Assembly (NCBI RefSeq): GCF_054482525.1
Contig: NZ_CM137006.1
Direction: 5' to 3' (one strand)
DNA: 64,000 bases
Shown in pieces: positions 22,348-22,802 of this stretch (positions are counted from its first letter, which is position 1; each line of letters begins with the position of its first letter). The translations under genes and the position numbers were made by a program. Below the pieces are notes generated by a model. That model was not told the DNA's origin and made no database searches. It saw only the letters and a list, made by a program, of their open reading frames with translations.

Positions 22348-22380
22348 AACACCCTCCAGAGAATATTCACTCACTTTATT

Positions 22381-22420
22381 TGCATATTAATTCACAATGA
22401 TGACGTAAATCAATGCAAAT
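22381..22420 (-). promoter_or_regulatory. carAB promoter region with ARG-box-like operator
   Basis: Minus strand reads TGTGAATTAATATGCA, close to the ArgR box consensus TnTGAATwwwwATTCAnw, immediately upstream of carA. Confidence 0.4.
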
Positions 22421-22714
22421 CTGCTTACCGACGAATTTCTGGCAAACGGCGGCATTCTGGAGATATGGGCGCTAAAAGTCAACTTAATGGCGGGATTTTT
22501 TATATTATTTTGTGGCTCATGCATGTTTTACAGGCATTAAGCGACAAAAAGATCATATAACATGTTCTGGAAAACGCTTGCGCAGCAAGAAGATTGCATG
22601 AAATAAAAATGAGCAGAAAAAAGTGGACCAGATGGTCAAAATTTACATTAAAACAACAAAAACAGAAGACAAAACGTGTAATTTTTAGCACTTACATAAA
22701 ATTTAAAAACATAA

Positions 22715-22750
22715 TACCAAAAATAAAAGGGCTAAAAATTAAAGCCCTTT
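22715..22750 (-). terminator. putative rho-independent terminator downstream of dapB
   Basis: Hairpin aaagggct...agcccttt with a T-run on the minus strand, about 50 bp past the dapB stop. Confidence 0.5.
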
Positions 22751-22802
22751 ATAATCAATAAATTAAATGTGTTATTTTTGCATCATCATAAACATTTTGT
22801 GG

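Follow-up and report, generated by a model that had tools for sequence, protein, structure and literature searches.

The window analysed here, the whole 64,000-nucleotide stretch of contig NZ_CM137006.1 (assembly GCF_054482525.1), belongs to Escherichia coli and contains the genes dapB, carA and carB, all encoded on the minus strand (Table 1). The interval 22348–22802 coincides exactly with the dapB-carA intergenic region and is 455 bp long, as is its counterpart in K-12 (29196–29650); K-12 coordinates are obtained as 51998 minus the window coordinate. The plus-strand positions given in a preliminary description of this interval are right, but the genes lie on the minus strand and the motifs listed there have to be read as reverse complements. 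A query of 701 bp around the interval finds matches in 5425 of 5426 E. coli genomes, and several complete genomes match it at 100% identity. Comparison with the carAB control region of K-12 (b0032, PMC6245113) reveals the same locus and length, the published sites at their published distances, and the same TTG and GGAGG. The 209 bp adjoining carA are identical in the two strains, whereas 15 single-base differences are found in the distal part (22557..22793), one of them in the central, non-critical part of the RUT box and four clustered within 11 nt of the dapB 3' UTR. The DNA upstream of carA had been described as AT-rich, and this is indeed the case: most 100-nt windows from 22350 to 22800 have a GC content of 0.20–0.39, with a minimum of 0.20–0.28 at 22600–22850, and one 100-nt window of the interval reaches 0.44; the flanking genes are at approximately 0.5–0.6. 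The most AT-rich part also holds the IHF site and the dapB 3' UTR.

Table 1. Features of the dapB-carAB locus in window coordinates; positions of regulatory sites relative to P1 are the published ones.
Feature	Position	Strand	Remarks
dapB	23624..22803	minus	
dapB 3' UTR	22719..22802	minus	contains the terminator hairpin; positional homologue of DapZ, degenerate
IHF binding region (predicted)	22734..22771	minus	mapped from published -324..-287; overlaps the 5' arm of the dapB terminator
PepA-hexamer-wrapped zone (predicted)	22507..22727	minus	mapped from published footprint -280..-60
RUT box TTGACCATCTGGTCCA	22624..22639	minus	published position -192..-177
PUR box GCGCAAGCGTTTTCCA	22568..22583	minus	published position, centred at -128.5
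Dam GATC	22551..22554	minus	published position -106 from P1
Promoter P1 (pyrimidine-controlled)	22447..22482	minus	-35 TTGACT 22482..22477; -10 CAGAAT 22459..22454
P1 start G	22447	minus	GCCGCC discriminator before, TTTGCC after; site of UTP-sensitive reiterative transcription
ES003 (Rfam RF02750)	22395..22447	minus	87.4 bits (gathering score 37), E 9e-18, full length
Promoter P2 (arginine/ArgR-controlled)	22380..22413	minus	start ~22380, from the published 67-nt P1-P2 spacing
ARG box 1 TGTGAATTAATATGCAAA	22379..22396	minus	1 mismatch to consensus
ARG box 2 AGTGAGTGAATATTCTCT	22358..22375	minus	3 mismatches to consensus; contains the upstream GTG
Upstream in-frame GTG	22372..22374	minus	opens the longest ORF; not taken as the start
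Shine-Dalgarno GGAGG	22353..22357	minus	5-nt spacer to TTG
carA initiation codon TTG (UUG)	22345..22347	minus	K-12 and PGAP annotation, PDB chains, review, TTG in 115/115 loci
carA CDS	22347..21199	minus	382 aa, TTG start
7-bp hairpin	22327..22309 (+21..+39)	minus	-9.1 kcal/mol; stem essentially invariant
carB	21181..17963	minus	

The terminator of dapB, already proposed in the preliminary description, is recognizable 53 nt past the dapB stop codon as a hairpin (AAAGGGCT-N9-AGCCCTTT) followed by TATTTTT, at 22750..22719, and this hairpin is present in both the MFE and the centroid folds. A simple terminator scan found no dapB terminator, because the loop comprises 9 nt and the limit of the scan is 8. 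Since the fold of 111 nt is overall no better than that of shuffled sequences (z = -1.3), the terminator call rests on the hairpin with its U-run and on conservation. One of the differences from K-12 changes a pair in the terminator stem, from U-G in K-12 to U-A in this strain. The 3' UTR occupies the same genomic position as DapZ (RF02551), the small RNA of the Salmonella dapB 3' UTR, and carries the same terminator hairpin and U-run; the DapZ model scores 84–100 bits at the corresponding position in Salmonella, Citrobacter and Klebsiella, whereas the E. coli sequence reaches only 26.3 bits, below the gathering score of 56. E. coli and E. albertii retain the terminator but have another sequence in place of the conserved DapZ segment CGTGATGTGGTTAT, and in this replaced stretch the present strain also differs from K-12. 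The distance from DapZ, at the 3' end of dapB, to carA is approximately 0.37 kb in E. coli, Citrobacter and Klebsiella, against approximately 1.5–2.2 kb in the two Salmonella loci compared, from S. enterica subsp. arizonae and diarizonae (L082 4938–7281; L056 3842–5455), which implies that in these two subspecies DNA has been inserted between dapB and the car control region.

For the mapping of the control region, the published site positions relative to the P1 start were transferred to the window with P1 +1 set at 22447. A promoter scan finds P1 as TTGACT-17-CAGAAT, and the sequence 22459..22441 fits the published promoter with its 5'-GUUUGC start and GCCGCC discriminator. Moreover, the Rfam family ES003 matches exactly the first 53 nt of the P1 transcript; its published position in K-12 is 29551–29603 (PMC4676190), so that the beginning of ES003 at 29551 provides an independent confirmation of the P1 start. 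From this anchor, the published positions of P1, P2, the ARG, PUR and RUT boxes, the GATC, the PepA zone and the IHF site all map onto the window, in agreement with the multi-regulator carAB promoters that had been suspected here. When 12 sequences representing nine Enterobacteriaceae genera are aligned, conserved footprints appear exactly at the published sites: AGAATGCCGCCGTTTGCCA of P1 is invariant across genera, TTGCATTGAT of P2 nearly so, CGCAAGCGTTTTC of the PUR box is conserved, and so is the TTGATT core of the IHF region, which is also identical to K-12. Two of the elements, the pair of ARG boxes and the RUT box, exceed chance expectation on their own; the RUT box, with one mismatch, is the only match in the window at up to two mismatches. 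The PUR-box motif was rejected as stand-alone evidence, its five matches in the window being not above chance (2.9 expected) with what we take to be the PUR-box consensus. Binding and regulation by ArgR, PepA, PurR, RutR, IHF and PyrH are taken from the literature and would apply to this strain by correspondence of the sites. At 22631, the RUT box differs from K-12 by a central T to C exchange; central substitutions in this box have a minor effect on RutR binding (PMC2952853).

ES003 itself was classed as a small RNA from RNA-seq coverage alone, with a 133-fold lower level in stationary phase, and bears the entry 'I' in the TSS column of the published table (PMC4676190). There is no terminator at its 3' end, which lies one base into ARG box 1. 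ES003 may be a fragment of the 5' UTR or, in our own interpretation, the product of pausing or of a roadblock at the ArgR/P2 complex.

The arginine-controlled part of the region is organized around two ARG boxes. The element TGTGAATTAATATGCA at 22396..22381, noted previously as ARG-box-like, is 16 nt long and covers ARG box 1 (18 bp) from its first base, but the second box, exactly 3 bp downstream, had been missed, so that there are two boxes and not one. Two 18-bp boxes separated by 3 bp are also the published carAB arrangement (PMC6245113), and their presence at P2 is what is expected of a control region of the E. coli type. ARG box 1 is the only match to the consensus with a single mismatch in the whole 64-kb window, in which 20 matches occur at up to three mismatches, versus 9.3 ± 2.8 in shuffled sequences. 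Nine of the 20 weak (3-mismatch) ARG-box-like matches cluster at 31343–37612, which suggests an AT-rich segment rather than real operators. In the 12-sequence alignment, ARG box 1 is invariant except for its first two bases and ARG box 2 shows one substitution; the block that begins at the third base of ARG box 1 and extends up to and including codon 4 of carA is invariant apart from a single base in Klebsiella. The Salmonella carAB control region (Kilstrup et al. 1988, to the extent that it is cited in PMC6245113) has tandem promoters; in it the ARG boxes from the third base onwards, the Shine-Dalgarno sequence and the TTG are identical to E. coli, the RUT box is conserved and the PUR box largely so. 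The start of P2 is published as lying 67 nt downstream of that of P1 (PMC6245113), which places the 5' end of the P2 transcript at approximately 22380; from this geometry the P2 hexamers would be TAATAT (-10, 22389..22384) and TTGATT (-35, 22413..22408). With the 67-nt spacing the ARG boxes cover the -10 element and the start site of P2, unlike the partial overlap with the -35 element stated in the review (PMC6245113).

The longest carA open reading frame extends from 22374 to 21199, is initiated by GTG and encodes 391 residues, of which the first nine, MSEYSLEGV, precede the conserved CarA N-terminus. The latter thus begins 9 codons inside the open reading frame, at the TTG 22347..22345, as had been pointed out from the sequence, and several sources agree on this TTG as the start. 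RefSeq annotation of K-12 b0032 (29651..30799) starts at TTG and gives 382 residues, as does the PGAP annotation of a strain that is 100% identical over the 701-bp query. The small chains of E. coli carbamoyl-phosphate synthetase in the PDB (six distinct sequences, supplied by the depositors and possibly taken from the gene) all match the long open reading frame from its residue 10 or 11 onwards and read MIKSALL, and the 2018 review of carAB names TTG as the initiation codon of carA (Charlier et al. 2018, PMC6245113). A search of the literature for N-terminal data or ribosome profiling that bear on carA yielded nothing relevant. The Shine-Dalgarno sequence GGAGG forms a duplex of -9.8 kcal/mol with the 3' end of 16S rRNA, and a duplex of -9 kcal/mol or stronger occurs for only 0.6% of 20-mers drawn at random from the window. 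An in-frame TTG is found at the conserved N-terminus with a Shine-Dalgarno sequence at functional spacing, and no better alternative is present.

Conservation was analyzed by searching for carA with a degenerate pattern for codons 2–17, which leaves the preceding codon unconstrained; 120 genomes from five Enterobacterales families were recovered, and 115 of the 120 loci had enough upstream flank. The start codon is TTG, preceded by GGAGG with a 5-nt spacer, in all of these 115 loci. Within the species, 5423 of 5425 E. coli genomes show an identity of at least 99% over the 121-nt segment comprising P2, the ARG boxes, the Shine-Dalgarno sequence, TTG and 16 codons. One of the only two genomes below this value is that of E. 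coli B REL606 (NC_012967.1 33550–33869), in which a C to A change and the deletion of one G in the Shine-Dalgarno region shorten the spacer from 5 to 4 nt and create an out-of-frame ATG; either a genuine variant or a fault in the assembly could account for this.

Translation from the upstream GTG (22374) would yield a CarA of 391 residues, and this start is used by some GenBank records (40 contigs). The GTG opens the longest open reading frame and an open, start-capable in-frame codon occupies its position in 85 of 115 loci; in the other 30, however, the position is CTG, CCG or TCG, or an indel puts it out of frame, or a stop codon closes it, and the nine residues of the extension lack conservation at the peptide level and are absent from curated annotation and from the PDB. 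Moreover, the GTG has no Shine-Dalgarno sequence, the 20 nt before it giving +0.4 kcal/mol, and the P2 mRNA begins only about 6 nt before it. This GTG opens the longest frame only by accident, because it is located within ARG box 2, and its use as the initiator is very improbable.

The codon adjoining TTG, ATT (22344..22342), merits the same scrutiny. ATT can initiate translation in E. coli, infC being a known case, and the original sequence paper of 1984 reportedly left this start of carA open; the codon lies 8 nt from GGAGG. While the TTG is invariant, however, codon 2 is ATT in 100 loci and ATA in 15 of 115, which argues against ATT as the initiator. Moreover, both the TTG and the ATT codons are needed for the M-I-K read in the annotated and PDB sequences, and the review names TTG (PMC6245113). 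We consequently regard initiation at ATT as a highly unlikely event. Still less credible is a start at the first ATG of the carA frame (Met36), although some automatic annotations adopt it and 68 contigs in public records carry the resulting 347-residue form: a CarA shortened in this way would lack 35 residues that hardly vary within the order and that the crystal-structure sequences contain, and among 102 distinct sequences 3 have TTG (Leu) instead of this ATG.

The dapB-carAB interval of this strain is the canonical E. coli region, of which the UUG start and the regulatory architecture are already known and the reference annotation is correct. Judging from the sequence and the published sites, both carAB mRNAs would almost certainly be translated from the UUG at 22347. 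The organization may be read as follows. On the minus strand, dapB ends at 22803 and its 3' UTR is closed by the intrinsic-terminator hairpin at 22750..22719, the approximately 350 bp beyond the terminator constituting the carAB control region. The IHF site, the PepA-wrapped zone with the RutR and PurR boxes inside it, and the GATC would modulate the pyrimidine- and purine-sensitive P1, whose transcripts would start at 22447, where the GTTTGCC start would also permit UTP-sensitive reiterative transcription. P2, starting at approximately 22380, would be shut off by the hexameric ArgR-arginine complex on the two ARG boxes (22396..22358). The UUG at 22347, positioned by a strong GGAGG 5 nt upstream, would then give the glutaminase subunit of 382 residues from both mRNAs. 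As the UUG start and the tandem-promoter architecture with ArgR, PepA, PurR, RutR and IHF have been studied since 1984, the region in itself has little discovery value.

Synonymous sites at the beginning of carA are unusually constrained: their normalized entropy is 0.25 over codons 1–20, 0.36–0.43 up to codon 60 and 0.6–0.76 over the rest of the gene (first 20 codons versus the rest, p = 1.6e-6), and the rare codons TCA, GGA, CGG and GGG are fixed in this early zone across five Enterobacterales families. The frozen zone comprises codons 2–64, at 22155–22344 in the window. The hypothesis that the dip is specific to carA was rejected in part, as the first 20 codons of carB display a similar value (0.31 vs. 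0.25 for carA); part of the dip is therefore generic, and only its depth and its extension to approximately codon 64 distinguish carA from carB. An overlapping open reading frame was rejected as the source of the constraint, no other frame being open across species. Amid the frozen sites lies a 7-bp hairpin (Table 1), whose invariant stem leaves no room for covariation; its only common variant (7 of 112) loses the closing pair without compensation. Consensus RNA folding of the region -33..+200 in 112 distinct orthologues revealed no convincing conserved structure beyond this hairpin.

A translation-activating stem-loop in the early coding sequence has been reported for fepA (Jagodnik et al. 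2017, as far as it is cited in PMC11979758). The carA hairpin, which is likewise small, stable and located early in the coding sequence among frozen synonymous sites, may resemble it, and this resemblance is only a lead. It is conceivable, albeit rather unlikely, that the UUG start is held by selection within a tuned translation-initiation module, in which the candidate hairpin could set the efficiency of the weak start in a fepA-like manner. If true, this would add a post-transcriptional layer to carAB control, of which no description was found in the searchable literature. The order-wide invariance of a weak start together with the frozen synonymous sites offers a small and cheap lead for the study of translational tuning of carbamoyl-phosphate synthetase.

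On the practical side, the warning that start-site callers may mis-annotate this gene is borne out by the public records, in which the 391-residue and 347-residue forms already mentioned (40 and 68 contigs) stand against at least 1000 contigs with the 382-residue form. Examples of mis-called CarA are BAG75556.1 (391 residues) and AFG38918.1 (347 residues, with a UniRef entry). carA is therefore useful as an annotation control, since the longest-ORF and the first-ATG rules both fail on it. The next-but-one gene in the window, which is ispH/lytB-like (24771–25805, minus strand), has a longest open reading frame starting at a TTG well upstream of the conserved N-terminus and is another case in which the longest-ORF rule would over-extend the product.
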